64,000 nucleotides of DNA, from assembly GCA_965204345.1 (NCBI GenBank), contig OZ241981.1, forward strand, positions 128,001-192,000, written 5' to 3'. The notes beneath the pieces are model-generated. The model saw only the letters and a list, made by a program, of their open reading frames with translations, did no database searches and was not told where the DNA came from. A program made the position numbers and the translations under genes. This DNA comes from Nitrosopumilus sp. (GTDB taxonomy: Archaea; Thermoproteota; Nitrososphaeria; Nitrososphaerales; Nitrosopumilaceae). The first letter of the stretch is position 1. Each line of letters opens with the position of its first letter. Positions 33,753-52,007 of the stretch are shown here, one piece after another.

Positions 33753-35995
33753 TTGAATTTAAAAGTAACATTGCCGATGATAATTTTCTCACTAGTCCTC
33801 CTGTTTGCATATCCTTTAGATTCTGCATCCTAGACTGATGATGAGGATGCACAGCTTGCAGTGCCAGGCAATCTTATCCCGGCTGAGAATACATTAGGTT
33901 CTGTTGCAAGTGTGGATGTACCACCCAAGTTTGATGGCGGCTTTTATGGCAAAATCCAGGCCTCATATCTGAGGTACCCCAAGATGGCGACTATGGGGTA
34001 CATGACGGCACGCGATACTATGATGTCCTAATTATAGTGGCCAGAAGTGATGGTATAGATGCAGATGAGACAGCGCGCAAGAACAAGGATGCAATAGTAC
34101 AGAGACTTGATCTTCTTGGCGCACGTAACATAGCATCTGCAGAGTCACTCTCATTTGTGACTGCATCCATCCCAGTTGCAGACGTTCTGGGACTCTCACT
34201 TTATGACGAGGTATATGCCATGGGAGATGGTGAAATTCCCGTGACTCTGGAGATTGATACGGCTACGGGAACCGTACATGCAACTCCCGATGAGATTCAT
34301 ACTGCGACTGGCACAAATCTTGATGGCAGTGGAGTTGTTGTGGCAATCATTGACAGAGGCATCAACCACGATATCGCATTTATGGGCAGAATCGATGGGC
34401 GTGTAGAGTGCGATGATACGTGTGAGCCTGCAACTGCTGATACTGTGATCGGCGTTAATAGTACTAATCATCTTTCTCGTAATTTTACATCCCATGGTAC
34501 GCATATAGCCCAAATCCTTGCCGCATCAGGACTGCCTGCTCATAACGGCATTGCCCCTGGTGTAAAACTTTTGGATGCCTCAATTACCAGGCACAGTGTA
34601 GATGACGATAACAACCGTACCTTCATTAGTGCAAACAGAAATGACGTGGCACATGCCCTTGACTGGTCTCTCAAAAAAGGAGCCGACATGGCAGTCATGA
34701 GTTTTGGTTTTGGAATCTGCAGTGGAGATTATGGAAAGACAACCAACCTCATCACAAATGAGGCAGTTGACAAGGGAATGGTTCTAGTATCATCTGCAGG
34801 AAACAGGGGCATAATTTATGGAGCGCCAAACCAGCCAGTTTATCATCTATATTCTGATATGTTTTGTATATGCAATAATGGCATAATTTATGGAGCGCCA
34901 AACCAGCCAGTTTATCAGTCTATAACTCATCTCGGATGCGGACACAATGAAATTACCGTAGGCGGAATAAATGATCGTGGTCAAACAATAACAAGGGCAG
35001 ATTTTTCAGGCATGGGTCCCGTACCCGGAACAGTCCTGCTAAAGCCTGAGATAGTTGCACCTGCACATCATATTCAGACACTGGACAATGTTGCAGAAGC
35101 TGACACTTTTAGTCCTCGGTCCGGAACCAGCCTTGCTGCTCCCCAGGCAAGTGCAACTGCTGCCCTGTTGCTACAGGCAAAACCTGATCTGACCCCAGTT
35201 GAGATAAAGACAATACTTCTTCTTGGGGCTGACTGGCAGGGTCCAATCCCTTGCACGTCTGCACAGTATGAAAAAAACAATTCCACCGACAACTGTTCTC
35301 ATGCCAGACAGCCCTCGGATCCTTTTGAGGCAACCAATGTTGCATCCCTTGGAATACTAAACAATGTGGGCTTTGGCATACTAAACACAGCAGAGTCACT
35401 CAGGTATGCTCACAGTGAATCATCCCATGTAATGTCACACTATCTAAAGTCAGATACGCATACAAAGCAGTACGAGTTTGACGTACAGGACACATCAAAG
35501 CCAGTCAAAGTGATACTGTCATGGCTGGTTCATCCGCATGGCAGTATAACCGGACAGTTGACGACTAATGATACAGCAGTCCCTATTACCAATCTTGATT
35601 TTACAATATTGTCTCCGGATAATGCTACAATACAGGCAACATCATCCCACCAGACAAACGAGTTTGCAGTGTTTGCCCCCACTCTACTAGGAACATACAC
35701 CATAACAGTTAGCGGCTCTAACATTGATAACATAAACAAGCCTGTACAAAACTTTGCACTGGCAAGTACCAATCCTCTTACACTTGTAGGTGACAGTATA
35801 CTGGAGAGAAAAATAGAGAGATACAACTCTACACAAATCAGAATTACAGATATCACAGAAGACATTAAACAGTTAGAGCAAAAATTACAGGACAAAAAAG
35901 ACAATCTGGCAGAACTAGACTCGTTACTTTCCAAGCTTTATCTGCAAATTATAGAATTGGCCCCTGATGGTTACGAATTTCCATTCAAGGATTGA
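33753..35995 (+). pseudogene. S8 subtilisin-like protease; catalytic part open (34037-35995) but signal/pro region broken by TAG at 33831 and a frameshift near 33960
   Basis: IIDRGI, SHGTHIA, SAGN, GTSLAAP triad motifs; upstream frame reads LKVTLPMIIFSLVLLFAYPLDSAS*TDD... Confidence 0.78.
34808..34917. repeat. 38-bp perfect direct repeat around a 34-nt insert
   Basis: ggcataatttatggagcgccaaaccagccagtttatca at 34808-34845 and 34880-34917. Confidence 0.97.
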
Positions 35996-36269
35996 ATCTT
36001 TTATTTAATGTATGCAACAAGATAACAAATGCCTGATGCATCCAAACTACTGCATCCCGTGTTAATAGTTTGCAAAAATCAAAAATATGCCATAAATTAA
36101 ACTTAGCAAACAAGTTATTAGATTGATTATTGATATCTGCTGCCAACAGGTTATAGATGTCTAATGGTCCAAAGCAAAAATATCTGTGTTGGGAAAATGC
36201 CATCATGTGCTGTCAATCTTGCGCTGTTTCCAATTTTTCAACAGCAAGATGAATATCCTCTTGCAGTTT

Positions 36270-36597
36270 GCTGGCAAATTCAGGTGATCAATTCATCAAA
36301 ATTTGCCAGAACCAAGTAGAACAAGTGTGGAAAAAGGATCTCCAAATTCAGAGACCTAAAAATTGTCCCCTAAATTCAAAATAATCTGCTGCTGCTGCTG
36401 TTGATATGAATCAAAATTGTATAAGGTAGTTGGTTGAATTTTGGAAATTATTGGTTAGCTGATCATTGGAACTTGACGGCAAAGTAGAAGAGACGATTTT
36501 CTCAGATATTTAATTATCAAAAAACCCCAAAGAAATGCAGTTTAGATACTTGAATTTGTGGTTTATGGCATGGAACACCAAAATTTGCCAGAACCTC
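36270..36597 (-). repeat. dispersed repeat copy with ctggcaaatt/aatttgccag inverted ends
   Basis: caaaatttgccagaacc at 36297 and 36579; reverse complement matches 15751-15900. Confidence 0.7.
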
Positions 36598-36621
36598 GTT
36601 AGCTATTATTAATAACATGGC

Positions 36622-39600
36622 ATGCCCACACTATCTATGGCCGGAATTGCAGTGTCTGGATTTTTGGTTTTGGTTGCCGTGATGATGATAATGGCAGTGA
36701 TGATGCCAGCACATGCTGCAACCTCGGACTCGCCACTTGACCAGCATCATGCAGGCATACCAATAGATGGGATTCAGTGCAATGACGGCAAGCTTTTGAT
36801 GGTGAACCTTGCAGGCAAGCCAGTTTGCGTAACTGGTGATTCTGCCATGAAATTAGGAGACGGGGGCAGCAGCGGCAGCAGCATATATGCCACGACGGCA
36901 CACACACCAGAAACATCCCAAAAAGCCAATGAACCTTTAAGTGAAAAGATCACAAGCCAGACAGACACGCATGTATTTACTGACAAAGAAAAGCAGATTA
37001 TCGCTGATTACAAGAAATCTTCAATATTATCATCACCTGGAATTCTTATACACAGTTATTCCTTAGATCTCTCAGAATCACCCAAGGTGGGCCAAACTGC
37101 TATGATAAACTTTACCGGTATCTACACTGATAATACAAATTTTGAGCCATACATGGAACCATTCACGCTAAAAGTATTTGCCAATCCTGGTGACAAAGTT
37201 TTGTTTCATGATGATGCAGTAACAAATGCAGGCTCTGATGATCCAACCATCTTTGTGCCATTTGATAATAAAGTCGGATATGTAGTAGATGAGCCCGTGC
37301 CGGGTAGGGCTTATACCGTGATGGTTACTGTAGAAATTCTAGAGGAGGGATTTATTGAAATTGACGCATTGCGCTTTGATTCTTTAGAATCCCGTGGCGG
37401 TGTCTACCTTGCAATATCTGATGAATATTCTATATCAGAAAATGAGTATATGGATGAGGGACACACATTTTTGGATCACATCATTTTAGCTAGGGCATCT
37501 AGTTCTGAATCTTTTGCACCTCAAGAAGATAGCGGACTTGGCAATGAAGCGAGGTCTGAGGATGAGATAGTTGATGAGGTTTTGACGGATAAAAGAGTAG
37601 CTGAAATATATGCCAACCACCTGCGACTTTTGGGTGAGATAGTTGTCAATGATATTGGCAAAGTCAATGACGATTTAATTGGATGGCTTGCTGATAAATC
37701 CCTTCCATTAGATGATGTAAAAATTATTTTGAGACACTCTAATTTCACGCAGGCGCAAGTAGATGATGTAATGGAGAGATACGAGGCAGATTATACTGGT
37801 CCCCCGGATATGACGGATGGTGAAGCAACAGCAGCAGCAGCAGCAACAACAGTAGTAGCAGCAGCAGCAACAACAACAACAACAACAGCAGATGGCTCCC
37901 CCACAGATACCGCTGCTGCCCCAGCATTCCCCGTAGCTGCAACTCAGGAGGCGTCTGTTGGTGCAGCAGAAGACTCTTCTTCCAACACTTTTTCCATTGA
38001 AGGCACCGTATCTGCTCAACTTTATCTTTCCCGCACCACGCAACCCATCAACGGGATAGAAGTCTGTGCCTATGATCAACTTGGATCTACCCGTAGTGCA
38101 TTGACTGTATTGCTTACAACTGAGGGTGAAGATGCCTGCACATTTACATCCAACAGGGGAGAATATCGCATAGATTCTATCCAAAATGATGATCCTGATG
38201 ATGAATCAAATGTTGATCTAGTTATCAGAGTTAGTTCCAGGGGTTCAAATGATTTAGTCGTGCATGGTATATCTGGTGTTTATATAGAGTCATCTACCAG
38301 AGTTTTGAACTTTAGTGATGATACAAGAATGTTTGATTTTGTATTGAACGGCCGTGATGCAAGAGCATCTGGTATAATCAATGCAATCTCTGATGGCCGT
38401 GATTTTTTTAGTCATCACGGTATTCCTCCTGAGGAGCTTACTGTAAAGTGGGAGTATCGTAGACTTGCTAGTGTTTTTCCAGACTATACCCGTAACAATG
38501 CTGGATATATACTATCTGCGAACACCATATTTCTTAGCAGTTTTCCTTCTATCGCTGATAATGCTTTACACAAAGATCTCATATTGCATGAATTTGGCCA
38601 CTATATTATGGATATACAAGGTGTATTTCCATTCCTGCTGCGTTGTTACACTGATCTAAACAATGATGGTGATTTTGATGATATCGGTGAGACATCTCAT
38701 TATCTTCAACACCCAACTAATCGTACATGTGCATGGACAGAAGGTTGGGCTAATTTTGTTCCTAATTTAGTTACCAATTCGTCAAGTTTCGATAGTACCC
38801 CTTTTGGTATTATTAATTTGGAGCAAGACAGACAACAGTTAACTACTAATAACTTTATAGATTTTTTACCCGTAGATGACTTTGATCTTATTGGAGAACT
38901 CGTTGAAGGACAGGTAGCCGGAGCGCTATGGGATATCAAAGATCATAACGTTGATGAAATATTTGACAATTTAGAACAAAGCAGTAACGGTACTAACTTA
39001 GATAACCTGCAATTAGGCGATGATGAAATTATTGATGTATTTAAGAATGGAAGATATCATAATTTTAGAGATTTCTATGCTGCATGGGAAGATACAGAAT
39101 ATGATTCTTCATCTGACATTATGAGACTTCACCACATGAACTTTGCAATCCCAAACGATCTACCCCCGCCATCAAACATAGTGACTGACAGTTTTAACAC
39201 GCTTGACAATTGGAGTCAATCTGGCGCCTCTTGTTCGGTTCGCATCTCTGAGATTTGTTTTAACACGCTTGACCATTGGAGTCAATCTGACAATGACATG
39301 TGGGAGATAAATAGTGCCCACAAAACCATTCCAGATTCTGCCAGCGACAATACGGTGGCAACATCTAGCAACTGTGGTTCCGCTTGTTTTATTACACTTA
39401 ACCAGCCACTAGACATAAGAGAGCCTCTTGTAGTATCCTTTGATAGATTTGTTGATAGGAGAATTAACTCAGATGAAGGTCTGTATGTGCAGTACATGAC
39501 AGACTCTAGATGGGTGACACTGGCACAATATACTGGTATGAATGGGAATAATACCGACAACTGGCACTCTGAAGCCCTGACACTTAGCCTACGTGATCAA

Positions 39601-42600
39601 TCACAGACATTACTGCGATTTGTGGCAGACTCAAGCGGAGACAATGAATTCGTAGAGATTGATAATTTTAACATCTCGCCACTACCATTCACATTTACAG
39701 CCGGATTTACAACCGAATTCGTCATTACTCTGTATTTCCCTGTAGGACATGATACTAATTTTACAGCAAGTGATTTTAGCCTGTCTGAGGGAGCAATCAA
39801 CTCTATTAGTGTTAGTCGCAATGGCGAAATATTGCGCATGTTTACATCAGGCATTCCATATAGTACGCCAGTTACAGTAACCTATGTTGGTTCTGATTTT
39901 GGTTTTGATGGCAGTGATTCACAGTCACGCCCCACAGCCACCGTAACCAACTTCGGAAGGCCAGATAGATCAACCTTTGCTGATATCACTTTGCGTAACG
40001 GAGAGACCCGTACTGTAAGCGTGTCTGCACCCAATGCCGACCATGGACCAGTTTCATGGGACCTATTAGAAGCTCCAGACTTTGTCAGCATATCCCGTAC
40101 TGGTAATGGTACGGCAGACGTTATCATCTCTCCGCATAACGCCACCGTTGGCACTTATCTTGTTCGGGTATTCGCGGAGGTTGTCTCATTTTCTGGTCGG
40201 TCAATAGATATTCATGTAACTATTGACGACGGCGACGACAATACTGACCCGCCAGATACCACAAACCCTGTAATTACTGCTCCTGCTGATCTCACTGTAG
40301 AGGCTACCGACATTCGTACACCTGTGAATACTGGTACGGCATCAGCTGCAGACAATTCAGGTCCAAGCCCTGACATAACTCACGACGCACCACCAGACAA
40401 TTTCCCACTTGGCCCCACAACAGTTACATGGACTGCCACAGATGCTGCAGGAAACACAGCTACTGCAACACAGACGATAACCGTACAAGACACAACACCG
40501 CCTGCAATACAAAAGCCTGAAGATATTACAGAAGAGGCTACCTCATCACTAACTGCAATACAGCTGGCAGACCCCACAGTAACAGATATCTTTCCTTTTA
40601 CCATAAATAGCAACGCAACTGCATCGTTTCCTCTGGGTGATACCATAATCGCATGGACTGCCACTGACGAATCTAGGAATATCTCTACAACAACTAGTAC
40701 GGTAACCCTAGTGGATACCACTCCTCCCACAATAGTACAGCCTGCACCAATAACTGTGGATGCCACAGCAGAACTTACACCCGTATCAATAAGCGCGCCA
40801 GCTGCAACTGACACGGTGGACTCAGGCGTTGTTGTTGCTGTAACTGACAGTAATACTGCATCATTTGCCGTTGGAACACACAACGTGGTATGGACTGCCA
40901 CAGATGATTCAGGAAATACCGCAACTCTCACACAGACAGTTACTGTCAGGGATGCAGTCCCAACAGACCCTCCAGACAATCCTGATACCGTTACCCTAAC
41001 CGTCTCTGTAGCTACAACTGCAGGTGATCTCACCAACCTTGCTACGGTACCATTTACGGCAACATTCAACAAGGATGTTGTCTTTGACCTAGGTGACATT
41101 ACAGTAACTGGTACTGCAAATGACGGCAATCCCACAGCATCCAACCTTGGCAGAACAGGCAGTATCTACACCTTTGATGTGGCACGCGGCTCCACAGACG
41201 GAACCGTGACCGTATCCATAGATGCAAACGCGCTAACAGACTCTGCAGGCAACCCCAACACTGCATCTGCTCCAGTTACCGTCACCATAGACACCCTTGC
41301 CCCGGCAGTCTCTGTAACTTCGTCTGCAGGCAGCCGCACCGGACTTGATACGGTACCATTTACAGTAGAATTTAACGAAGACGTTGAGAACTTTGTCCTA
41401 GATGACATTACAGTGACAGGCGATGCCAACGGTGGAACCCTTGCAGCAACCGGCTTTGAGACAGTTGATGCCCGCACATACACCTTTAACGTTGCAGGCA
41501 TATCCTCAGACGGAACCGTAACTGTATCAGTTGCAGCAGATGTGGCAGCAGACCTTGCAGGCAACCCCAACACCGCATCTGCCCCAGTTACCGTCACCGT
41601 AGACACCACAGTCCCATCAGTATCACTGGACACAACTGCTGCTGATCCTACCAACTCTGAGGTCATACCATTTACTGCAATCTTTAGCGGCAATGTCACA
41701 GGATTTGAGCGGTCTGACATCGTTGTGGCAATTGACGGAACCCAGGTATCTAACTCTGAGATTAGTCTTGACCTTGGAGGGGAAAATTCCGTTGTTGTGT
41801 CAATTGGCAGTACACAGGCATCAGATAGCCTGATAACTGCCTTTAATGTAATTAATGGCACCCATTACAACTTTGCAGTCACACACGGGATCACCACAGA
41901 TGGCAAGCTAGCAGTAAGCATACCTGATGGTGTGGTGGCAGGGGGCAACACGGGTGCCGTACATACTATTACGGTGGACATGGTAAACCCATCCGTATCT
42001 ATCACGCCTGCTGATGGCACCACCATTACTGGTGATGACCCTGTAACGTTTACTGCAACATTTGATGAGGACGTTGAGAACTTTGAGCTGGATGACATTA
42101 CAATAGCGGGCACTGCCAATGGCGGCACCCCCACAGCATCCAACATTAATGGAGAAGGCAGTGTCTACACCTTTAATGTGGCACGCGGCTCCACAGACGG
42201 AACAGTAACCGTATCAATAGGTGCAGGTATGGCAGCCGACCTTGCAGGCAATCCCAATGAGGCATCTAATTCAGTTACCGTCACCATCAGCACCACAGGA
42301 GATGAGATTGAGGCAGATATCCCCTCTGGAGGTGATGGTGGCGTAGTGACATATGAGCCATCCTCAAATCTGATCACCCTCAACGTGGTATCTGACACAT
42401 TGCCTGACACAATTATTGCCACTGATGGCCAGCTGCTTGACTTTAATGCCACCCCCACGTTTGCTGATGATGCTGCAAGCGGAGTAAAGAGTGTGAGAAT
42501 TTCTGATTCTACAACTGAGGTTATCACTGATGTCTCTGATTCCCAAACTGTATCTGTCACTTATCCAGCAGGTATAGTTGTAAACGGTTCATCAAATGAT

Positions 42601-44295
42601 TGGAGTGGCACCATTGCCGTTCCAACCCTTGTTACTGCTGGCACTGCTGTTGATCCTCCAGCCTCAAATGACGAGATAGGACTGGCATTCTCAGTCGGTG
42701 ATGGCAACACCAGATTAACATTTGATCAGGCAGTCAGGTTACTCTTGCCTGGCCAGGCAGACCATGAGGGAGCCTTTTTCTCAGGAGAGGATACAGATGG
42801 CAACGTGATATCACGATCACTGGTTGTGTGTCCGTTTGTTCCTGTCAATCAGACTACTGCCAATGACAATATTGGAGCTGGCACTGCGTTGGAATCCTGT
42901 TTTGTTCGTGATGCTCCTGATATGATCATCTGGACCACGCACTTTAGCTCATTTGGCTCATTCTCTACGGTTCCTGTAGACCCTACACCATCCACACCTT
43001 CTAGTAGCCGCAGTAGTAGTGGTGGCGGTGGCGGTGGTGGCGGTGGCGGTGGCGGTGGTGGCGGTGGCGGTACCTCCTCCTCCTCCTTCAGCGGCTCATC
43101 TGCTGCAAACAATGCCTCCGAAGCTGTTTTGTACGACGTACAGTGGGATGTCTGTGAGGCAAACACAATCAACGTAATAGCTGGTCCTGTAACTGACAGT
43201 CTCTCTGTAAAGCTTAGAACCAACGCAGGCATAATCACGGCAGAACGCTCTGATGAGCAGCCCTATACTGGAAGAATCTCATTTGATGCAAGCCTCTCAC
43301 CAAACGAGTCATTTGTACGCGTACATGTGGAAAATATCGCAGCAAGGGGAATATCAACTGATTCAAAGTCATTTAACCTCACCGAGTGTTCTGGTTCTGT
43401 ATCTGTAAACACATACGAGTTATCATCATCGCCTGTTATTACCGGTGGCAGTGCAGATGTAACACCTGATCTGCCATCCAAAAAAGCGGATTTCTCAGAT
43501 GACATTATCATGCCAGGCCCCATCCAAGTACAAACGCCTGACATAATACGTGAGTTCCTCAACGACTTTGCAGATATTACCAATACTAACACGGGTATGA
43601 AACTCACTGAATTCCAGACACTGCAATCAAACCCTGACAGATATGCCAAGACCGTCCTGGGAATCAGCGGACAGACAGTTACCACAGTTGCATTGGCAGA
43701 CAGACCCATCTCAGAGGAGAGTAACAACAACAGTGCAAACCTCTTCTTGCAAATCTCATCCAATGGTGAGAAGGTCAACTCCATGAGGGGCGTTCTCTTG
43801 GGAGGTGACACCATTGAGATTGTGGCAGGAGACAAAAGTAAGATCATCGTTCCAACATCTGCAGAAATTGCAATTGCATCTGGGGATGCAAACGTGACAG
43901 TATCTCAAAAATCAAGCATGAAAATTAATGACGGATCAACGCAGGTTGATCTGCCAGACGTGCTCAGAGAATTCCTAAATACCAACATTGAATTTACAAA
44001 CGAGGATACCGGTGAGGCACTAACGCAATACGTGGTGTTGCAGTCAGTACCAGATGTGTTTGCAGAAAAAGAACTTGGAATCTCAGGACAAACCGTAACT
44101 ATCATCGCGTTCCCAGACAGGTATGGCAGAGCAGACAGCAATGATGACCTGAATGTCTTTGTACAGTTTACGCACACTGATGAGCAGGTCAACTCTTTGA
44201 GAGGCATCCAGCAGGGCGGCAACGCAATCAGCGTTAGCACCAACGGCGCTGAGCAGGGAACACTGACACAGACAGTAGAGATTCCGCTGGGCTAG
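36622..44295 (+). CDS. giant secreted protein: SPLxQ module, Ala/Thr linker, gluzincin-type metalloprotease, jelly-roll, HYR x3, Ig-like (Big) repeats, poly-Gly linker, duplicated C-terminal domain
   Basis: signal peptide; LHEFGH (38587) and AWTEGWANF; HYR and FTATFxEDV...DLAGNPN repeats. Confidence 0.88.
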   Translation: MPTLSMAGIAVSGFLVLVAVMMIMAVMMPAHAATSDSPLDQHHAGIPIDGIQCNDGKLLMVNLAGKPVCVTGDSAMKLGDGGSSGSSIYATTAHTPETSQKANEPLSEKITSQTDTHVFTDKEKQIIADYKKSSILSSPGILIHSYSLDLSESPKVGQTAMINFTGIYTDNTNFEPYMEPFTLKVFANPGDKVLFHDDAVTNAGSDDPTIFVPFDNKVGYVVDEPVPGRAYTVMVTVEILEEGFIEIDALRFDSLESRGGVYLAISDEYSISENEYMDEGHTFLDHIILARASSSESFAPQEDSGLGNEARSEDEIVDEVLTDKRVAEIYANHLRLLGEIVVNDIGKVNDDLIGWLADKSLPLDDVKIILRHSNFTQAQVDDVMERYEADYTGPPDMTDGEATAAAAATTVVAAAATTTTTTADGSPTDTAAAPAFPVAATQEASVGAAEDSSSNTFSIEGTVSAQLYLSRTTQPINGIEVCAYDQLGSTRSALTVLLTTEGEDACTFTSNRGEYRIDSIQNDDPDDESNVDLVIRVSSRGSNDLVVHGISGVYIESSTRVLNFSDDTRMFDFVLNGRDARASGIINAISDGRDFFSHHGIPPEELTVKWEYRRLASVFPDYTRNNAGYILSANTIFLSSFPSIADNALHKDLILHEFGHYIMDIQGVFPFLLRCYTDLNNDGDFDDIGETSHYLQHPTNRTCAWTEGWANFVPNLVTNSSSFDSTPFGIINLEQDRQQLTTNNFIDFLPVDDFDLIGELVEGQVAGALWDIKDHNVDEIFDNLEQSSNGTNLDNLQLGDDEIIDVFKNGRYHNFRDFYAAWEDTEYDSSSDIMRLHHMNFAIPNDLPPPSNIVTDSFNTLDNWSQSGASCSVRISEICFNTLDHWSQSDNDMWEINSAHKTIPDSASDNTVATSSNCGSACFITLNQPLDIREPLVVSFDRFVDRRINSDEGLYVQYMTDSRWVTLAQYTGMNGNNTDNWHSEALTLSLRDQSQTLLRFVADSSGDNEFVEIDNFNISPLPFTFTAGFTTEFVITLYFPVGHDTNFTASDFSLSEGAINSISVSRNGEILRMFTSGIPYSTPVTVTYVGSDFGFDGSDSQSRPTATVTNFGRPDRSTFADITLRNGETRTVSVSAPNADHGPVSWDLLEAPDFVSISRTGNGTADVIISPHNATVGTYLVRVFAEVVSFSGRSIDIHVTIDDGDDNTDPPDTTNPVITAPADLTVEATDIRTPVNTGTASAADNSGPSPDITHDAPPDNFPLGPTTVTWTATDAAGNTATATQTITVQDTTPPAIQKPEDITEEATSSLTAIQLADPTVTDIFPFTINSNATASFPLGDTIIAWTATDESRNISTTTSTVTLVDTTPPTIVQPAPITVDATAELTPVSISAPAATDTVDSGVVVAVTDSNTASFAVGTHNVVWTATDDSGNTATLTQTVTVRDAVPTDPPDNPDTVTLTVSVATTAGDLTNLATVPFTATFNKDVVFDLGDITVTGTANDGNPTASNLGRTGSIYTFDVARGSTDGTVTVSIDANALTDSAGNPNTASAPVTVTIDTLAPAVSVTSSAGSRTGLDTVPFTVEFNEDVENFVLDDITVTGDANGGTLAATGFETVDARTYTFNVAGISSDGTVTVSVAADVAADLAGNPNTASAPVTVTVDTTVPSVSLDTTAADPTNSEVIPFTAIFSGNVTGFERSDIVVAIDGTQVSNSEISLDLGGENSVVVSIGSTQASDSLITAFNVINGTHYNFAVTHGITTDGKLAVSIPDGVVAGGNTGAVHTITVDMVNPSVSITPADGTTITGDDPVTFTATFDEDVENFELDDITIAGTANGGTPTASNINGEGSVYTFNVARGSTDGTVTVSIGAGMAADLAGNPNEASNSVTVTISTTGDEIEADIPSGGDGGVVTYEPSSNLITLNVVSDTLPDTIIATDGQLLDFNATPTFADDAASGVKSVRISDSTTEVITDVSDSQTVSVTYPAGIVVNGSSNDWSGTIAVPTLVTAGTAVDPPASNDEIGLAFSVGDGNTRLTFDQAVRLLLPGQADHEGAFFSGEDTDGNVISRSLVVCPFVPVNQTTANDNIGAGTALESCFVRDAPDMIIWTTHFSSFGSFSTVPVDPTPSTPSSSRSSSGGGGGGGGGGGGGGGGGTSSSSFSGSSAANNASEAVLYDVQWDVCEANTINVIAGPVTDSLSVKLRTNAGIITAERSDEQPYTGRISFDASLSPNESFVRVHVENIAARGISTDSKSFNLTECSGSVSVNTYELSSSPVITGGSADVTPDLPSKKADFSDDIIMPGPIQVQTPDIIREFLNDFADITNTNTGMKLTEFQTLQSNPDRYAKTVLGISGQTVTTVALADRPISEESNNNSANLFLQISSNGEKVNSMRGVLLGGDTIEIVAGDKSKIIVPTSAEIAIASGDANVTVSQKSSMKINDGSTQVDLPDVLREFLNTNIEFTNEDTGEALTQYVVLQSVPDVFAEKELGISGQTVTIIAFPDRYGRADSNDDLNVFVQFTHTDEQVNSLRGIQQGGNAISVSTNGAEQGTLTQTVEIPLG
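37824..37890 (+). repeat. (GCA/ACA)n trinucleotide tract, poly-Ala/Thr linker
   Basis: gcaacagcagcagcagcagcaacaacagtagtagcagcagcagcaacaacaacaacaacaacagca. Confidence 0.9.
39191..39289. repeat. 33-bp direct repeat (1 mismatch) around a 33-nt insert
   Basis: gttttaacacgcttgac(a/c)attggagtcaatctg at 39191-39223 and 39257-39289. Confidence 0.95.
43021..43071 (+). repeat. (GGT/GGC)17 poly-glycine linker
   Basis: ggtggcggtggc... flanked by Ser runs. Confidence 0.95.
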
Positions 44296-44349
44296 CCTTT
44301 CTTCCTCCTTTGCCATTCTCGCTATCTTCAGGTATTTTTGATCCATTAT

Positions 44350-44530
44350 ACTGCAAGGCAGTTTTTGGGTCAGGTAAATTCTGACTAGCGAAATTTGACA
44401 GTAAACTGCAAAAGAGACGGTTTTCTTAAAAAAAGAATTGCATATTCTGGCCATTAAAAAATCCCAAAAGAGGTGCAATACTAGATCTCTCAGATTTGTG
44501 GCATAAAACACCAAAACTTATCAGAACTCC
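44350..44530 (-). repeat. dispersed repeat copy
   Basis: reverse complement gttctgataagttttggtg...gggattttttaatg...aagaaaaccgtctc matches the 36430-36597 copy. Confidence 0.65.
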
Positions 44531-44832
44531 AACTCACCCCTTGAGAATTAACACTGGGAATACCGCACGCTCATCACTTTTTTTAGAAATCCTTGGAAAC
44601 CTAGAAAAGTTAGACCCAGAGTAATAATGCATCCGTCATATTCAATAGGTGCGATGAGAATGATATGCAGACATTGAAGAAAGTCCTCGGATACCTGCTT
44701 GCAAGAACCCATCGACAAGATGGCTACACATCAAAATGACACCAAGATTGAACAGTGTACATAAGACAAACTTTGTCTGCACACCAACCAATTGCATGTC
44801 TGACTTTTGCATGTTTTCTCGATTCTGCTTAG

Positions 44833-45678
44833 TTGAAATACTGGCTTTTATCTGTCATAAACATGAATGGATTCATTTTCATTTTGCCCTTGCTGGCCGT
44901 ATTGGCAGCAGGCTCCCCGCTGTCTTTGGTTTTTGCTGAAACTTTTGATATCAAAATACCCTTTGGTGCATCCGACCCTAATGCCCCTTTCTTTTGGTCT
45001 GAAACATCCACAGGCATTACCACTGGCAAAATTACTGTTTATCCAGGAGATTCAGTCACCTGGCATAATGCAGACACTGCCTTTCACACTATAACTTCTG
45101 TTACTCCCTCTGGTGAGGAAGATGGCCTTTTTGATAGTGGCTTTTTTACTGCTGGCAAGTCATACACTAAACAATTTGATGATCCGGGGGATTTTTACTA
45201 TTACTGCAGTCTCCACCCTTACATGAGTGGGATAGTCCATGTTGTGACAAATAAGGGAACCGTGCAATCCATCCCCAATGTTGGTTCCGGGTATGGCGAG
45301 GATGGCTTGGGCTTTGAGGTAAAATACATTCTTGACGCCAATTTGCAAAAAGACGTACATGTAAATCCTGATGATAAAAGCCTGACCTTTAGAATTTCAG
45401 GTTTGAGCGCTAGTGAGCAGATTACAATCATGCTTCCTGCCGGACTAATTGAAAACCCAAACATTGTCCTTGTTGATGGCACAAATACGTCTTTTGAAAA
45501 ATCCCCAATCCCTGCTGGCTCACAAATGATATTTTCTCTTTCTGCGGGCTCTCAAGAGATTAAAATAATTGGAACAAAGGTAATTCCAGAATTTGGATTT
45601 TTGGCATTGACCGTACTAAGCATTGGCCTTGTTTCAACATTGTTTTTGGCACGCTCTAGGCTGTCTCTTATCAGATGA
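44833..45678 (+). CDS. blue-copper (cupredoxin) protein with PEFG-CTERM anchor
   Basis: HTITS...YYCSLHPYM type-1 Cu ligands; IPEFG + TM helix + basic tail. Confidence 0.92.
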   Translation: MKYWLLSVINMNGFIFILPLLAVLAAGSPLSLVFAETFDIKIPFGASDPNAPFFWSETSTGITTGKITVYPGDSVTWHNADTAFHTITSVTPSGEEDGLFDSGFFTAGKSYTKQFDDPGDFYYYCSLHPYMSGIVHVVTNKGTVQSIPNVGSGYGEDGLGFEVKYILDANLQKDVHVNPDDKSLTFRISGLSASEQITIMLPAGLIENPNIVLVDGTNTSFEKSPIPAGSQMIFSLSAGSQEIKIIGTKVIPEFGFLALTVLSIGLVSTLFLARSRLSLIR

Positions 45679-45881
45679 CATTCCTTACATTTGTGAGTGT
45701 TTTTTGTATTTTTTAAATAAATTTTAGATATTCATGACGCTGCTGTTTTATGTCGCCTGGTGTGTTATGCTGTGAGGACTTCTAGTTTGGCAGGCATAAT
45801 GGAAAATTTGAGCTTCCCCTCCACGAACTCAAATATTTCACTGCCATTCTAAGACGACTCTGTCTCTCTCTCTCTTTTTCC

Positions 45882-46682
45882 TTACAGCACTGTCTGTCTC
45901 TTGAGACTTTTTGTAAATGATGCAATTTTTGCTTCCAGCTTTTTTTGAGGTGTCTTTTCAATTAACTCTAGATATGCACTTCCAACAATTACTGCATCTG
46001 CACCTGCGTTGACGTATCTTCTTACATCCTGCGGCGTTGAAACTCCAAACCCGATTCCTATTGGAATGTCTCCCTTGGTCTGTCTTTTGATTTGTCTTAT
46101 TGCATCTAGCGTGTATTTCTTGATTCTGGTTTTTACCCCGGTTGTACCAAACACTGCAACCAAGTACAAAAATCCGGATGTTGCTTTGGATATTTTTTGA
46201 ATTCTTGCCTTCTCTGTATTTGGAGATATTAGAAATATGGTATCTGTCTTGTCTTTTGCGGCGTTTAGATACTCTTCTGACTCTTCAATGGACATGTCAG
46301 GCAGGATAAATCCGTCAATGCCTGCATCTTTGGCATCTGTGACGAATTTTGCATATCCCTTGTGGTATAGGATGTTTGTATATGTCATTAGCACTAGTGG
46401 GATGTCTGTCTCTTTTCTAATCTTCTTGACAAGATTGAAAAACTTTGCAATTTCCGTTCCTTTTTCTAGTGATACCGTGCTTGCATTTTGAATAACCGGT
46501 CCGTCTGCTAGAGGATCTGAAAACGGAAAACCCAATTCAATAATGTCTGCTCCCCCCTTTATGAGCCCCCTCACTGCAGATAACGTGGATTTTTCATTGG
46601 GAAATCCTGCCATGATGTATGAGACTAGGGCCTTTTCATTTTTTGACTCCAATTCCGTAAATTTTTCCTTAATTCTTGACAT
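45882..46682 (-). CDS. trpA: tryptophan synthase alpha
   Basis: [23 protein letters not shown]. Confidence 0.97.
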
Positions 46683-47859
46683 GTTTATTCAGATAATTCT
46701 GTACTTCCTCAATGTCCTTGTCTCCCCTTCCCGAAAGCGTCACTACAATTGATTCAGACTTTTTGCTTTTTCTTGCAACCTTGACTGCCTCTGCTATTGC
46801 ATGTGATGATTCTAGTGCGGGTATTATTCCCTCAGTTCTTGTTAGCATTACAAATGCATCTATGACTTCTGCATCCGTTGCCGCATGGTACTTGACTCGC
46901 TTTGTATCCTTATAGTAAGAGTGCTCAGGGCCTACTCCCGGATAGTCCAATCCTGCTGAGATACTGTGTGTCTCAGTTACCTGTCCCTCTTTATCTTGCA
47001 ATAGGTATGTTAGCATTCCATGCAAAACACCCTTGCTTCCAGATGACAGTGTAGCCGAATGCATTTTTGATTTTAATCCATGGCCTGCAGCTTCTACTCC
47101 GATAATTTGGGAATTTGAGTCAACTAGTGGGTAAAACGTGCCAATTGCATTAGAACCTCCCCCCACACATGCAATTACCGTATCTGGCGTCTTGCCATTA
47201 ATTTTTTTCATTTGTGACTTTATTTCATTTCCAATCACGCTTTGAAAGTCCCTGACCATTACAGGATACGGGTGCGGTCCGACTGCTGATCCTAGCAAGT
47301 AATATGTGTTTTTTACATTTGTAATCCAGTCACGAATTGCCTCATTAATTGCGTCCTTGAGTGTCTGTGAGCCTGATTTTACCGGGTGAACTGCGCATCC
47401 AAGCATACTCATTCGGAAGACATTCTGTTTTTGTCTGACTGTATCCCTATACCCCATGTATACCTCAGCCTTCATTCCCAATGCAGCACATGCCATTGCA
47501 GTTGCAACACCATGCTGACCTGCACCCGTCTCTGCAATGATTCTTTTTTTGTTCATTTTTTTTGCAAGCAATGCCTGACCCAGGGTATTGTTTATTTTGT
47601 GAGCCCCCCCATGGAGCAGATCCTCCCTTTTTAGATATATTTTAGCACCCCCTAGCTTTTCAGACAGATTTTTTGCATAGTATAGCGGCGTTGGCCTGCC
47701 TGCATAGCTTTTTAGATGACAGTCTAATTCCTTTTTGAATTTTCTGTCACTTTTGATTTTTAGATAGTTTTCTTCCAACTCTTCGATTGCCGGAACTAGC
47801 GTTTCGGGAATATATCTTCCACCAAATTCTCCAAACCTTCCGTTTTTAGGATACCTCAA
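46669..47859 (-). CDS. trpB: tryptophan synthase beta
   Basis: [25 protein letters not shown]. Confidence 0.97.
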
Positions 47860-48638
47860 TATGCATTCACCAATTTTTTTACCTGCTCTTCAATGTTGTC
47901 ACTTTTCATTATGCTTGATCCTACAAGAAACGCACTTGCCCCACACTTTTTTAAATACCGGATGTCCTCAGACGTGCTGATTCCGCTCTCAGACAACACC
48001 GGTCTGGTACACTGATTATCCTCAAGAATATTTTTACTAGTCTCAAGATCAATTTCTAGCGTATCCAAATTCCTATTGTTAATTCCGATAAGATCAGCTC
48101 TTGTATTTAGCGCATTTTGCAGTTCTTGCCTTGTATGCACCTCAAGCAGTATTTTTAATCCCTGCCTGTGTCCATAGCCTATGAACTCATCAATCTCTGA
48201 GAGGAATTTTTGATCATACAGCGACTGAATAACTAGCATATAGTCTGCTCCCATCCTTTTTGCAGCGTCTACTTGGATTGTATCAATCATGATGTCCTTC
48301 ATTAGCATTGGCACATCTGTTGCTCTTCTAACCTTCATGAAATGTTCAGGTGATCCATGAAATAGATGTGGCTGTGTCAAAACTGATAATGCCCTTGAGC
48401 CTCCCGCAATCATCTGATTTGCGATTTTTACAGGATCTGCCAACGTTCTGATTTTGCCTAGTGAGGGGGATGCAAATTTCACTTCTGTGAGCAGTGTTGC
48501 ATGCGGGTTTGTTCTGATTGTTTCAATGAAATCCTTGGATGATCTTTGCAAATTCGCACTAATGTCATACACCCCATCATCAACTGCCATTTGAGAGTTG
48601 TTTACCAGTCTTCGTAGGATATTTTCAGCCATCTGCAA
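47856..48638 (-). CDS. trpC: indole-3-glycerol phosphate synthase
   Basis: [27 protein letters not shown]. Confidence 0.96.
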
Positions 48639-49671
48639 CCTCCCTTAATTTTACAGCGTCTCCCGTATCTTGCACAAATTTTTCCAGTAATGAAAATGCC
48701 CTGCCGTCTCTTATAGTATTTAATGCCAATTCCACTGCTTCCTCAAAAGTATTGCAAACATCTGCAACAATTAGGCCCCCTGCAGCATTTAATGCCGTAG
48801 TCTCAATCATTGGCTGGTTGGCAGTGCCATTTAGCACTCTTACAAATGATTTTGCTGCCTCTTCTTTGGTTCTAATCTGAATGTTCTGCAAGGATGATTT
48901 GTGCAGCCCTACTGCCTCTGGATCAACTGTCTTTCTCAGAATTTTACCATTTTTTAACACACATACGCGGTTTGTTGCACTTGTGGAGAACTCGTCCATT
49001 CCGTCATCTGAACGCACCGTCATGACATTTTCAGCACCCCTTCTTTTTAGAATTAATGGCAACCTGTCTAGGTATTCACTGGAGAATACGCCTATTAGTT
49101 GGTTTCTGACTCTTGCCGGATTTGATAACGGGCCCAGCAAGTTAAATGCGGTCCTTTTCCCAATCTGTTTTCTAGCTGCTGAAACATGTTTCATTGCAGG
49201 ATGGAATTTTTGTGCAAACATAAAGCAGATATTGTGCCTTTGCAACGTCTCTGCAATCTTTATTGGCTCCAAGCTCAAATCATATCCAAAATATTCAAAA
49301 ATATCCGCACTTCCAGAAACCCCCGAACTTGAGCGGTTTCCGTGCTTGGCCACCGTACCTCCAGCTGCTGCCACAACAAATGATGCAGTTGTAGAGATGT
49401 TAAATGTCTGCAGTCTGTCCCCTCCCGTACCGCACATGTCTATGACTGTTCCCTTGTTTTTGACCCCGATCTTTAATGAAAATTCTTGCATCTTCTCAAG
49501 CATGCCCAACAGCTCATCATCTGTCTCTCCTTTTTCTGCAAGTGCTGATAGGAAACTCGCATTTTGAGCATCATCTGTCTTGCCCGTTAGCATTTTTGTC
49601 ATGACCTGGTTTATCTCATCGTATGTCAGATCTGTTTTTTTCTGCAGTTTTGCAATCAAATCCAAAATCAT
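48625..49671 (-). CDS. trpD: anthranilate phosphoribosyltransferase
   Basis: DMCGTGGD, KHGNRSSSG, GMDE. Confidence 0.96.
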   Translation of the reverse strand: MILDLIAKLQKKTDLTYDEINQVMTKMLTGKTDDAQNASFLSALAEKGETDDELLGMLEKMQEFSLKIGVKNKGTVIDMCGTGGDRLQTFNISTTASFVVAAAGGTVAKHGNRSSSGVSGSADIFEYFGYDLSLEPIKIAETLQRHNICFMFAQKFHPAMKHVSAARKQIGKRTAFNLLGPLSNPARVRNQLIGVFSSEYLDRLPLILKRRGAENVMTVRSDDGMDEFSTSATNRVCVLKNGKILRKTVDPEAVGLHKSSLQNIQIRTKEEAAKSFVRVLNGTANQPMIETTALNAAGGLIVADVCNTFEEAVELALNTIRDGRAFSLLEKFVQDTGDAVKLREVADG

Positions 49672-50264
49672 CTCCTCTTCTCCTTTACTTGGCTTATGAA
49701 ATTCCCCAGAATTTTTTTGCCGTCTTCAGTCATTATTGACTCTGGATGAAATTGCACGCCCTGAATGAGGTATTCTTTGTGCTCAATGGCCATGACCTCG
49801 TTATCATCAGATGCCGTTGCTATTACTTTTAATACTTTTGGGATTTCTGTTCTGTCTCCGACCAGACTGTGGTATCTGGTTGCTCTAAACGGGTTTCTTA
49901 CGCCTGCAAATAGTTTTGATTCCTTATAACTGACAGGACTTGTTTTCCCGTGTCTTACATGTCCTGCATTTGTTACCTTGCCTCCAAACGCATCAATAAT
50001 CCCCTGATGTCCCAAGCATACCCCTAAAATTGGCATCTCTGATCCCATATCCTTGATTACCTTGGAGCATACCCCAAAGTATTTTTCATCTTCGGGGGTT
50101 CCGGGACCTGGCGAGATTATTACTGCATCGTAATTTTTTTCCTTGATTTCTTGCAGCGTAATCCTGTCATTTCTAATCACATCACATGTTACTCCTAGTT
50201 CTCCTAAATATTGTGCAATGTTGTATACAAAGGAATCATAGTTGTCTATAATTAAAAACTTCAA
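49668..50264 (-). CDS. trpG: anthranilate synthase component II
   Basis: IDNYDSF, SPGPG, GVCLGHQ, QFHPES. Confidence 0.96.
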   Translation of the reverse strand: MKFLIIDNYDSFVYNIAQYLGELGVTCDVIRNDRITLQEIKEKNYDAVIISPGPGTPEDEKYFGVCSKVIKDMGSEMPILGVCLGHQGIIDAFGGKVTNAGHVRHGKTSPVSYKESKLFAGVRNPFRATRYHSLVGDRTEIPKVLKVIATASDDNEVMAIEHKEYLIQGVQFHPESIMTEDGKKILGNFISQVKEKRR

Positions 50265-51610
50265 CCTGATGACTCCTTTAGTGCCTGAAGCATTGCATCT
50301 GCCTTGTGTTCTGTTTCCTTGAATTCGTTTTCTGCAACAGAGTCTGAAACAATTCCTGCTCCTGACTGGAGAAAACCCTTGCCGTCTTCTATGAATATGC
50401 TTCTAATGGCTATTGCAAAATCACAGCATCCGTTATATGAAAAATAGCCTACAGCTCCCGCGTATGGTCCCCTTGCCTCTGTTTCTAATTCGTCTATGAT
50501 CTGCATTGCCCTCACTTTTGGTGCCCCTGACACTGTTCCTGCCGGAAATACTGCCTCAAACGCATCAAACATGTCTTTTTCAGGCGCTAAATTCCCTACC
50601 ACATGGCTTACAATGTGTTGGACATGACTGAACCGCTTGATCTCCATTAGTGATTCTGGATGAACCGTTCCATATCTGCATACTCTGCCAATGTCGTTTC
50701 TGCCCAAATCAACTAGCATTGTATGTTCTGCCAACTCCTTTTCATCATGAATTAATTCCTCAGATAATCTTTTGTTCTTTTCTTCATCATCTGTAATTTT
50801 TCTAGTTCCTGCAATTGGAAATGTTTCTACCCTGTCCCCTGTAATCCTAACTAGCATTTCAGGTGATGCCCCAATTATTGTCTTGGTGTTTTGTTTTAAG
50901 TGATACATGTATGGTGATGGATTTAGCTTCCTTAGTGTTTTGTATAGCGTCAAGTCATCTCCCACCGCATCAAATGTAAATTTTCTAGACAGTACCACTT
51001 GAAAAATATCCCCATCATGAACGTATTTTTTTGCTTTGTTTACCATCTCTGAATATTTCTCCTTGTCCATATTTGCAGTCACATCGCCTGAATCAAAGTC
51101 TCCAAAGGAACCATCACTCATAACCAATTCATTGAACCTGTTTTTATCATAGTAAAAATAAAATAATTTCTCACGAATCTGATCATATATTATGCCGTCA
51201 TCATAAATCCCAAATTCCATTAATGGCTGTGGTGAATTGTGATTATCTGCAATGTCCTCTACTAGTCTAACTGCATCATAGTTTACTACTCCTACAGCTC
51301 CTCCCAGATACCTGTATTTCTGATTGTCTGACTTTGCCAATATCTTTTTTAGTTCTGAAAACGGTTCTGATGTTTTAATGGTTTGCGTGTTGCCATCCTC
51401 AATAATCTCTACTTTGTCTGAGTAGCCCTTTAGAATTATTTTAGGATCAAATCCCATCACTGATGTCTCAGCTAGTGCTTCTGGGCCTGTTAGTGATTCA
51501 AAGAGAAACGAATGCAAGTAATTTCTTGATATTTTGTTATAAATTTGAAATTGGTTTTCAGACAAGTCTAGTGGTACTACTTTTGCCTGAATATTTCCAA
51601 AGGTGTCCAC
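50261..51610 (-). CDS. trpE: anthranilate synthase component I
   Basis: GDIFQVVLS, EHTMLVDLGRND, GTVSGAPK. Confidence 0.96.
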   Translation of the reverse strand: MDTFGNIQAKVVPLDLSENQFQIYNKISRNYLHSFLFESLTGPEALAETSVMGFDPKIILKGYSDKVEIIEDGNTQTIKTSEPFSELKKILAKSDNQKYRYLGGAVGVVNYDAVRLVEDIADNHNSPQPLMEFGIYDDGIIYDQIREKLFYFYYDKNRFNELVMSDGSFGDFDSGDVTANMDKEKYSEMVNKAKKYVHDGDIFQVVLSRKFTFDAVGDDLTLYKTLRKLNPSPYMYHLKQNTKTIIGASPEMLVRITGDRVETFPIAGTRKITDDEEKNKRLSEELIHDEKELAEHTMLVDLGRNDIGRVCRYGTVHPESLMEIKRFSHVQHIVSHVVGNLAPEKDMFDAFEAVFPAGTVSGAPKVRAMQIIDELETEARGPYAGAVGYFSYNGCCDFAIAIRSIFIEDGKGFLQSGAGIVSDSVAENEFKETEHKADAMLQALKESSG

Positions 51611-51707
51611 CCATAGACAGATTTTTGATGGCTTGTTATTTAAAGTGATGAGGTGGTGTCAGTTGCCTACTTTTACCTGATCTTTTTGCCACTCAGGCAT
51701 AAACTAT

Positions 51708-51724
51708 TACCGTATAGTACGGTA
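51708..51724. promoter_or_regulatory. palindromic putative operator TACCGTA-tag-TACGGTA
   Basis: perfect 7-bp inverted repeat next to TATA-like tttatag, between divergent trpE and the small Zn-finger gene. Confidence 0.5.
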
Positions 51725-51749
51725 CCTTTATAGTCAGGTTCGTTGTAGT

Positions 51750-51947
51750 ATGATTGCCATGCCAGGGGTAAATCAAACAATCATGCAAGACATGCTGATT
51801 CTAAAAAAGCAAACAGCATCCACTACAGTAAGCAAGGTTGAATGCTATGTTTGTGGCAAGGGATTGCAGGACGGTCATTCCATTACTGCAAGAACGCTGC
51901 CAAATGGAATAGCCTTGTTCTGTGATGTCCACTATTATCAACAATAA
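51750..51947 (+). CDS. small Zn-finger-like protein (start uncertain)
   Basis: CYVC...FCDVH; last codons derive from the insert at 51937. Confidence 0.7.
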   Translation: MIAMPGVNQTIMQDMLILKKQTASTTVSKVECYVCGKGLQDGHSITARTLPNGIALFCDVHYYQQ

Positions 51948-52007
51948 ATGCAAGGATACAGAGCTAATGGCCAAATGGAATAGCCTTGTTCTGTGATGTC
52001 CACTATT
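51899..52007. repeat. 38-bp perfect direct repeat around a 33-nt insert
   Basis: gccaaatggaatagccttgttctgtgatgtccactatt at 51899-51936 and 51970-52007. Confidence 0.97.

Follow-up and report, generated by a model that had tools for sequence, protein, structure and literature searches.

The stretch of DNA analysed in this work (the window, 64,000 nucleotides) corresponds to positions C1:128001-192000 of a 2.12-Mb, 9-contig Nitrosopumilus sp. genome with 38.7% G+C (G000), which encodes an archaeal AmoA and belongs to a sponge-associated ammonia-oxidising archaeon. Three loci of the window share a repeat-insert-repeat anatomy in which a segment of host sequence (the target, R) is duplicated around a short insert, and these footprints are considered here as very probable products of spacer integration outside the array of a CRISPR system. 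The original prediction had placed footprints (R plus insert) of 38+34 nt at 34808, 33+33 nt at 39191 and 38+33 nt at 51899, and all three were reproduced at these coordinates. The features, with window positions, are the following:

34808-34845, unstranded: event 1, R copy 1, a 38-nt target within the Peptidase_S8 gene 34037-35995 (plus strand)
34846-34879, unstranded: event 1, insert, 34 nt, spacer-like
34880-34917, unstranded: event 1, R copy 2, 38 nt, 0 mismatches to copy 1
39191-39223, unstranded: event 2, R copy 1, a 33-nt target within the HYR/Big_12 Ig-like gene 36622-44295 (plus strand)
39224-39256, unstranded: event 2, insert, 33 nt
39257-39289, unstranded: event 2, R copy 2, 33 nt, 1 mismatch to copy 1
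51899-51936, unstranded: event 3, R copy 1, a 38-nt target in the last codons of the small conserved gene 51681-51944 (plus strand)
51937-51969, unstranded: event 3, insert, 33 nt
51970-52007, unstranded: event 3, R copy 2, 38 nt, 0 mismatches, followed by the original gene end (HYLLQ-stop)
41722-41832, unstranded: possible fourth event, doubtful, with about 25/34 positions identical at offset 72

In event 1, the insert plus one R copy adds 72 nt (24 codons) in frame and free of stop codons, so that the open reading frame (ORF) of 652 aa reads through, and event 2 likewise adds 66 nt (22 codons), in frame and stop-free, to an ORF of 2557 aa. Event 3 adds 71 nt, and its insert provides the small gene (88-aa frame) with a new C-terminus (HYYQQ-stop); this is the 71-nt event that had been predicted at the last codons of a gene. 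The in-frame additions claimed for long ORFs were found in events 1 and 2 and could not be upheld for the fourth event, described in the original prediction as a degenerate footprint of about 39+33 nt at 41722. This segment lies in the domain-repeat part of the giant gene, where equally weak matches occur at other offsets, and with 25/34 identity it is not individually significant and is regarded as doubtful.

Sites with a single R copy and without the insert, as expected before each insertion, were found for all three events. Six paralogous copies of the event 1 region (85-99% nucleotide identity) have this empty structure, and so does a paralog of the event 2 region, C1:1708602-1709016, at 88-91% identity. 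For event 3, the ortholog in a relative (G012) has one R-equivalent followed by HYSLQ-stop, matching the HYLLQ-stop found in G000 after the second copy. A fourth empty site concerns the cas1 gene of G000, described below, since the Cas1 protein of another relative (G086, 58% identical) aligns over its full length with a gap exactly at the footprint. Orthologous empty sites were readable only for event 3 and cas1, the nearest species representatives showing about 79% DNA identity.

An artefact of assembly or sequencing, by mis-joined contig ends or chimeric reads, could in principle produce such structures. Public data covering the stretch comprise 13 runs from 4 studies (sponge metagenomes, a 2010 metagenome and a coded organism), and contigs of runs X1, X3, X4 and X10, which come from 4 studies of 2010-2024, span event 2 with 0-2 differences (records 4, 13, 18 and 28); over its whole length of 921 nt, the X3 record shows 13 differences and 1 gap. 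Confirmation from independent runs was therefore obtained for event 2 and not for events 1 and 3, at whose 38-nt repeats the public contigs break, which counts in favour of an artefact. Against an artefact stand the four bridging runs for event 2, the existence of decayed copies and of later segmental duplications, the frame rule observed in genes, the like footprints of independently assembled relatives and the inserts that derive from distant loci (all described below), and we regard this explanation as extremely improbable. A 72-nt skip at the joint 34807/34880, seen in runs X1, X4 and X10, was evaluated as an empty allele of event 1 and rejected: it stems from paralog copies, as these contigs show paralog differences and multi-copy depth.

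The distribution of such footprints along the genome was determined by an ungapped direct-repeat scan at offsets 30-200, which gave 244 matches that were not low-complexity, with 73 rows listed at offsets 60-82. Curation of these 73 rows yielded 24 unique clear events, defined by an R of at least 31 nt with no more than 2 mismatches. Target lengths in this set range over 31-42 nt, with a median of 36.5 and eight cases of 38 nt; inserts are 30-41 nt long (median 35), and the period is 66-76 nt (median 71). The near-constant insert length noticed in the window therefore holds genome-wide, with a sharply peaked distribution of insert and period. A tolerant scan of contig C1 (34-nt windows with at least 27/34 identical positions, offsets 40-130) revealed 54 matches at offsets 66-76, distributed as 66 (2), 68 (3), 69 (2), 70 (7), 71 (7), 72 (24), 74 (4), 75 (6) and 76 (1); all remaining offsets that are not multiples of 3 had 0-1 matches, and the remaining multiples of 3 had 0-8, originating from protein repeats. 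The 54 matches take in 5 units of the native array and several protein repeats, and about nine decayed candidates were gained; beyond the 24 clear events, about a dozen decayed ones are present. Five 400-kb chunks of the genome gave 5-16 matches each at offsets 66-76. Some events have decayed to 1-3 mismatches between the R copies, and some were recopied by segmental duplication, as three identical copies 3598 bp apart or as inverted pairs, and are therefore old, inherited features.

Several rows were dropped during curation: low-complexity and codon-repeat matches, the native array, four later copies of events already counted (1410373, 1413971, 1424895 and 1848731), C1:301804 (R of just 24 nt), and a repeat family at C1:250509-253500 and C6:30990 (core TGCAACAAGAT, A or G, ACTGATTG) with offsets of 74-79 and repeats of about 50 nt, which does not belong to the footprint type. 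Also removed was C1:1236292, a direct repeat of 26 nt at offset 62; it is present in the 400-kb piece of a relative with 52% G+C (G002, position 229421) and is probably a conserved functional element rather than a footprint.

These data also bear on ordinary slippage or a tandem duplication whose middle part later diverged, and on internal repeats at the protein level. The genome does contain many true codon-periodic repeats at multiple-of-3 offsets, and the 41722 segment lies within such a region. In the clear events, the R copies are identical and the insert is unrelated to R or to the flanks, offsets 70, 71 and 74 are enriched as much as 72, and five inserts copy distant loci, so that this explanation is extremely improbable.

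The position of the events relative to genes follows a frame rule. In each of the 8 events located in long open frames, the added length is divisible by 3 and free of stop codons (periods 72, 66, 69, 72, 75, 72, 72 and 72), and events of 70, 71 or 74 nt are confined to intergenic DNA, gene ends or short frames. Although the genome is gene-dense, only 5 of the 24 clear events, plus the one in cas1, lie inside long frames, which suggests that selection purged most insertions within genes. The in-frame additions, of 22-25 residues, affect a subtilase, the giant Ig-like protein, a helicase-type protein and others. The remodelling of surface proteins put forward in the original prediction applies to 2 of the 24 clear events (the S8 protease and the HYR/Ig-like giant) and not to the rest, which are mostly intergenic or at gene ends.

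G000 has a single match to the Cas1 family (minus strand, C1:1887727-1888668), after which come cas2 and cas4. It belongs to the only type I-B locus of the genome, which lies outside the window, in agreement with the earlier remark that the window itself contains no cas gene:

C1:1884292-1888716 (L002:8292-12716): decayed type I-B locus with a cas6 C-terminal remnant, mini-array, cas4, cas2 and split cas1

A tblastn search with the type I-B proteins of G086, whose set is complete (a Cas8-sized protein of no family, Cas7/Csh2, Cas5, Cas3, Cas6, Cas1, Cas2, Cas4 and a 67-repeat array), recovered from G000 only cas1, cas2, cas4, the cas6 C-terminal remnant (C1:1884292-1884660) and a weak Cas3 match (24% identity, E=8e-5) that corresponds to the helicase gene beside event 3; no homologs of the G086 cas8, cas7 and cas5 genes were found in G000 by this search. 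Pfam and NCBIfam models of Cas7/DevR, Cas5d and Cas6 (Cas6_C) detected nothing in G000, the Cas10 and RAMP families being outside this search, and the cas3_core model gave only sub-threshold helicase matches. Because only the adaptation genes, the cas6 remnant and the weak Cas3 match were recovered, the locus is a decayed one in which the adaptation genes outlived the interference genes. A gene for a 563-aa tyrosine integrase adjoins the cas6 remnant.

The mini-array (C1:1886277-1886670) consists of 6 repeats with periods of 72, 68, 70, 72 and 72, and it is the only true array among the loci. In the minus-strand reading, its repeat ends with GATTGAAAC, and the leader ends with gaggct before the first repeat. 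Native array and cas1, cas2 and cas4 genes, whose search had been proposed with the original prediction, are thus present, and the geometry of the footprints equals that of the array. The newest, leader-proximal unit (C1:1886549-1886660) is off register: it duplicates 40 nt, made up of 30 nt of repeat and 10 nt of old spacer, and leaves the second repeat truncated. The cas1 gene carries a footprint of its own, a 72-nt R38-S34-R38 insertion that is in frame and introduces two TAA codons. Since cas1 was hit by an ectopic insertion, the CRISPR system of G000 is now dead.

An array-like geometry could also arise if the footprints were orphan mini-arrays imported by mobile elements or viruses. Array-carrying mobile elements are described in Thaumarchaeota in the accessible part of one report (PMC6563490), which together with the tyrosine integrase gene beside the cas locus would favour this origin. 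Each ectopic target is present exactly twice and all targets differ in sequence, in place of the three or more repeat copies and the leader of a canonical array. Every duplicated segment is a unique host sequence (S8 protease, giant Ig-like protein, tRNA, cas1), and single-copy empty sites exist in paralogs and orthologs, so that import appears highly improbable.

The inserts of 37 loci (the 24 clear events, the 4 later copies and 9 weaker candidates) were compared with the genome. Five of the 24 clear-event inserts, at C1:330574, 486267, 500922, 1385280 and 1947301, have full-length matches with 0-3 mismatches to distant chromosomal loci; the remaining full-length matches occur only among later copies of one event, and the event 1 insert has no full-length match elsewhere in the genome. 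The inserts are not templated from adjacent DNA; templating of that sort would have spoken against the original prediction. One of the five donors lies in the window:

46508-46541, plus strand: donor (protospacer), 33/34 identical to the 34-nt insert at C1:1385316-1385349, 1.2 Mb away

This donor sits in a gene that adjoins an anthranilate synthase gene. The inserts share nothing with one another beyond chance matches of 7-8 nt, and their G+C content (40%) is genome-like. Across the five pairs, 7/168 nt differ between insert and chromosomal match and 1/189 between the R copies (Fisher p=0.029). As the inserts diverge from their chromosomal matches more than the R copies do from each other, the donors may have been closely related DNA, from sibling strains, rather than the resident copy.

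For the 24 clear events, the 48 ends (two per event) were pooled, each strand being read 5' to 3' in the direction of the duplicated segment. G occurs at -3 in 26/48 ends (9.3 expected), GC at -3,-2 in 11/48 (2.0 expected), and C or G followed by T at +1,+2 in 18/48 (5.1 expected). Event 3 illustrates this pattern, with cgct/G at the left end (the slash marks the border of R) and tgc on the other strand at the right end, both having G at -3 and C at -2. At the native junction of leader and repeat the sequence is ggct/CTGAAT in G000, ggct/GTCTGAAT in the relative G153 and gact/CAATTAAT in G086; the target-end motif (G at -3, then C, then T or C before the nick) matches this junction. The R termini (first 8 nt per end) also resemble the termini of the native repeat, with a mean of 7.0/16 identical positions vs 5.36 at random sites, a value reached in 0/20000 resamples. 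In the events of the relatives, G is found at -3 in 6/10 ends (p=0.005).

Transfer RNA genes are among the targets. In one G000 event the duplicated segment is the 3' part of tRNA-Ser(CGA); it begins immediately before GTTCGAATC in the T-arm, and the tRNA stays intact. Three events lie within at most 700 bp downstream of this gene (C1:485796-486490; L019:1796-2490). An event of G153 (contig position 939883; L081:19883) starts at the same T-arm position, before GTTCGAATC, of another tRNA, an intron-containing one called by Rfam and missed by ARAGORN. The sequence GTTCGAATC resembles the reverse complement of the 3' end of the repeat (GTTTCAATC).

Five relatives were scanned over 400 kb each by the same method as G000. 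Two perfect ectopic footprints (35+34 and 35+34) were found in G086, beside its large array, and three (36+33, 37+34 and 35+37) in G153, which has the same Cas1 type and a large array; G010 and G002, without Cas1, gave 2 dubious matches each, none at 71-72. The Cas1 type of G000 is present in 14 of 151 genomes of the genus, G000 included, and in relatives that possess it the array repeats measure 36 and 37 nt, with periods of 70-76. In the fifth relative (G018), a mini-array with a 36-nt repeat and a period of 72-74 is located at C1:252741-253100.

Another integrase or transposition system, for instance a casposase-like one that would duplicate about 37 bp around a cargo of about 35 nt, has to be weighed at this point. 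Cas1-family genes are common in the genus (43 of 101 sampled genomes), their long forms being presumably casposases, and G018 has footprints without a Cas1 match. Casposases prefer tRNA gene ends, and the target duplication of casposons is about 14-15 bp. The sole Cas1-family match in G000 is nevertheless the CRISPR one, the inserts have no common terminal or internal sequence and are thus not transposon ends, the geometry and target motif fit the native array and the leader junction, and footprints accompany this Cas1 type in G086 and G153. Such a system is, in our opinion, very unlikely to be responsible.

The explanation that we favour, with high confidence, is that the footprints are the result of natural off-target (ectopic) spacer integration by the type I-B adaptation complex of the host (Cas1-Cas2, with Cas4). 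The original prediction of a promiscuous Cas1-type integrase finds support in the peaked geometry, its match to the native array, the distant donors and the empty sites. Direct observations cover the footprint anatomy, its agreement with the geometry of the native array, the presence of cas genes, inserts derived from the host chromosome, empty sites and a motif at the targets; the role of Cas1-Cas2 as the catalyst is inferred. In the proposed mechanism, a prespacer would be trimmed to about 33-37 nt and joined to the chromosome by two staggered attacks, one per strand, about 36-38 bp apart. The attacks would favour ends that resemble the repeat termini and the junction between native leader and repeat, with G-C-T/C preceding the nick and C/G-T following it, and gap repair would duplicate the 36-38 bp lying between the nicks. 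Loss of the interference genes would presumably have allowed self-derived spacers to persist.

Several observations weigh against this explanation. The cas1 gene is now a pseudogene, so that no present-day activity is possible. The conserved core of the native repeat is 34 nt long, slightly below the duplications of 35-39 nt, and the whole-length similarity of the targets to the native repeat is at chance level (mean 16.8 vs 16.8). The motif statistics were framed post hoc, their sole independent replicate being the 10 ends from relatives. No source in the genome was found for 19 of the 24 clear-event inserts, those of events 1-3 gave 0 exact matches each in viral_contigs (an exact search only), and no consistent protospacer adjacent motif was detected beside the protospacers, of which there are only 5, with no orientation assigned. 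G018 (54% G+C) has several decayed 71-72-nt footprints and the mini-array but no Cas1 match. Read support comes from assembled contigs only, one run may be the own source of the assembly, and events 1 and 3 remain unbridged, with contigs that stop within the 38-nt repeats as expected for word-based contigs.

Integration of this kind is already known from experiments; what sets the case of G000 apart is the number of events in nature, their effects on coding sequences, a target motif that can be read, further footprints in relatives and a cas1 gene inactivated by its own system. In 2018 (Nat Microbiol), Nivala, Shipman and Church reportedly obtained off-target Cas1-Cas2 integration and 'neo-CRISPR' units in Escherichia coli type I-E with over-expressed Cas1-Cas2. 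According to the accessible portions of three reports, E. coli is an established case of off-target Cas1-Cas2 integration (10.1101/148544, PMC6698737, PMC9456107), and the first of them mentions 'circumstantial evidence' for it in two other species. As far as these portions describe them, the E. coli neo-CRISPR units resemble the G000 events in the duplication of a repeat length around a spacer-length insert, the use of non-CRISPR sites and the influence of a leader-like motif. Unlike the products of over-expression, those of G000 are natural, fixed, counted in dozens and of an archaeal type I-B system, with in-frame gene insertions, a hit in cas1 and recurrence in relatives.

In the available text of PMC6698737, Cas1-Cas2 of Pyrococcus furiosus is described as integrating in vitro at non-CRISPR plasmid sites with a 30-bp spacing, and paired opposite-strand attacks one repeat length apart, base preferences at the nick and a partial likeness to repeat borders are common to both cases. 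In contrast to that plasmid reaction in the test tube, the G000 products are chromosomal and inherited, their attack sites are about 36-38 bp apart and the flank motif is G-C-T/C. In Haloarcula hispanica, which has the same subtype, mid-repeat motifs are needed for a 30-bp repeat to be duplicated exactly, as stated in an excerpt of PMC4872114; integrase and repeat features together set the duplication size. The ectopic targets of G000, unlike the H. hispanica repeat, lack such motifs overall, and this absence may explain the spread of target lengths from 31 to 42 nt.

Ectopic acquisition in Streptococcus also takes place away from the leader-proximal repeat but, in the sections available of PMC7999890 and PMC5338259, at genuine array repeats, whereas the G000 targets are unrelated chromosomal sequences. 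Casposases share with the proposed reaction a Cas1-family integrase, staggered cuts and target duplication (PMC5137440, in its available part), and casposons are multi-kilobase elements with terminal inverted repeats, in contrast to the 30-41 nt cargo without shared ends and the 31-42 nt duplication of G000. In a literature search of incomplete coverage, supplements excluded, which took in a survey of thaumarchaeal mobile elements (PMC6563490), naturally occurring ectopic spacers across the genome were not found described for these archaea, nor were in-frame insertions into genes that stem from such spacers or a cas1 gene struck by its own product.

Some characteristics of the genes that carry or adjoin the window events are also worth recording. 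The S8 protease has many paralogs with 68-88% protein identity (C1:302690, 291863, 412593, 1701670, 1728643, 1762582, 1850293 and 1945224; C7:2367), some within large inverted segmental duplications, and an internal TAG is present in two copies; a related-locus search of the genome contig collection with this protease as query gave no relatives. The 2557-aa HYR/Ig-like gene contains long Ser/Asn and Gly codon-repeat tracts (window 37816-37897 and 43001-43097), at which the contigs of the public runs break. Next to event 3, the minus strand at window 52003-54648 encodes a DEAD/DEAH helicase of 881 aa that has an MrfA Zn-binding domain; it is the top cas3_core match of the genome but scores below the cut-off, and it was discarded as a Cas3.

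Experiments with over-expressed or purified Cas1-Cas2 have demonstrated off-target integration; on its weight in natural genome evolution, G000 provides a fossil record of dozens of events. A broader proposal, which we advance tentatively and consider somewhat less probable than its opposite, is that the type I-B adaptation module acts throughout this clade of ammonia-oxidising archaea as a genome mutator guided by sequence and produces heritable insertions of 66-76 nt. If this were the case, the module would be a regular source of new peptide segments, gene ends and single-unit proto-arrays, with repeated strikes on tRNA T-arms; capture of DNA from sibling strains would be possible, and destruction of cas1 would constitute a self-limiting route to CRISPR loss. 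The host cost of adaptation, the de novo origin of CRISPR units and the part of self-integration in CRISPR loss become testable, and the events offer naturally produced data on the rules by which the integrase of an uncultured archaeon selects its targets, along with donors for some of the inserts and a view of selection through the frame rule.

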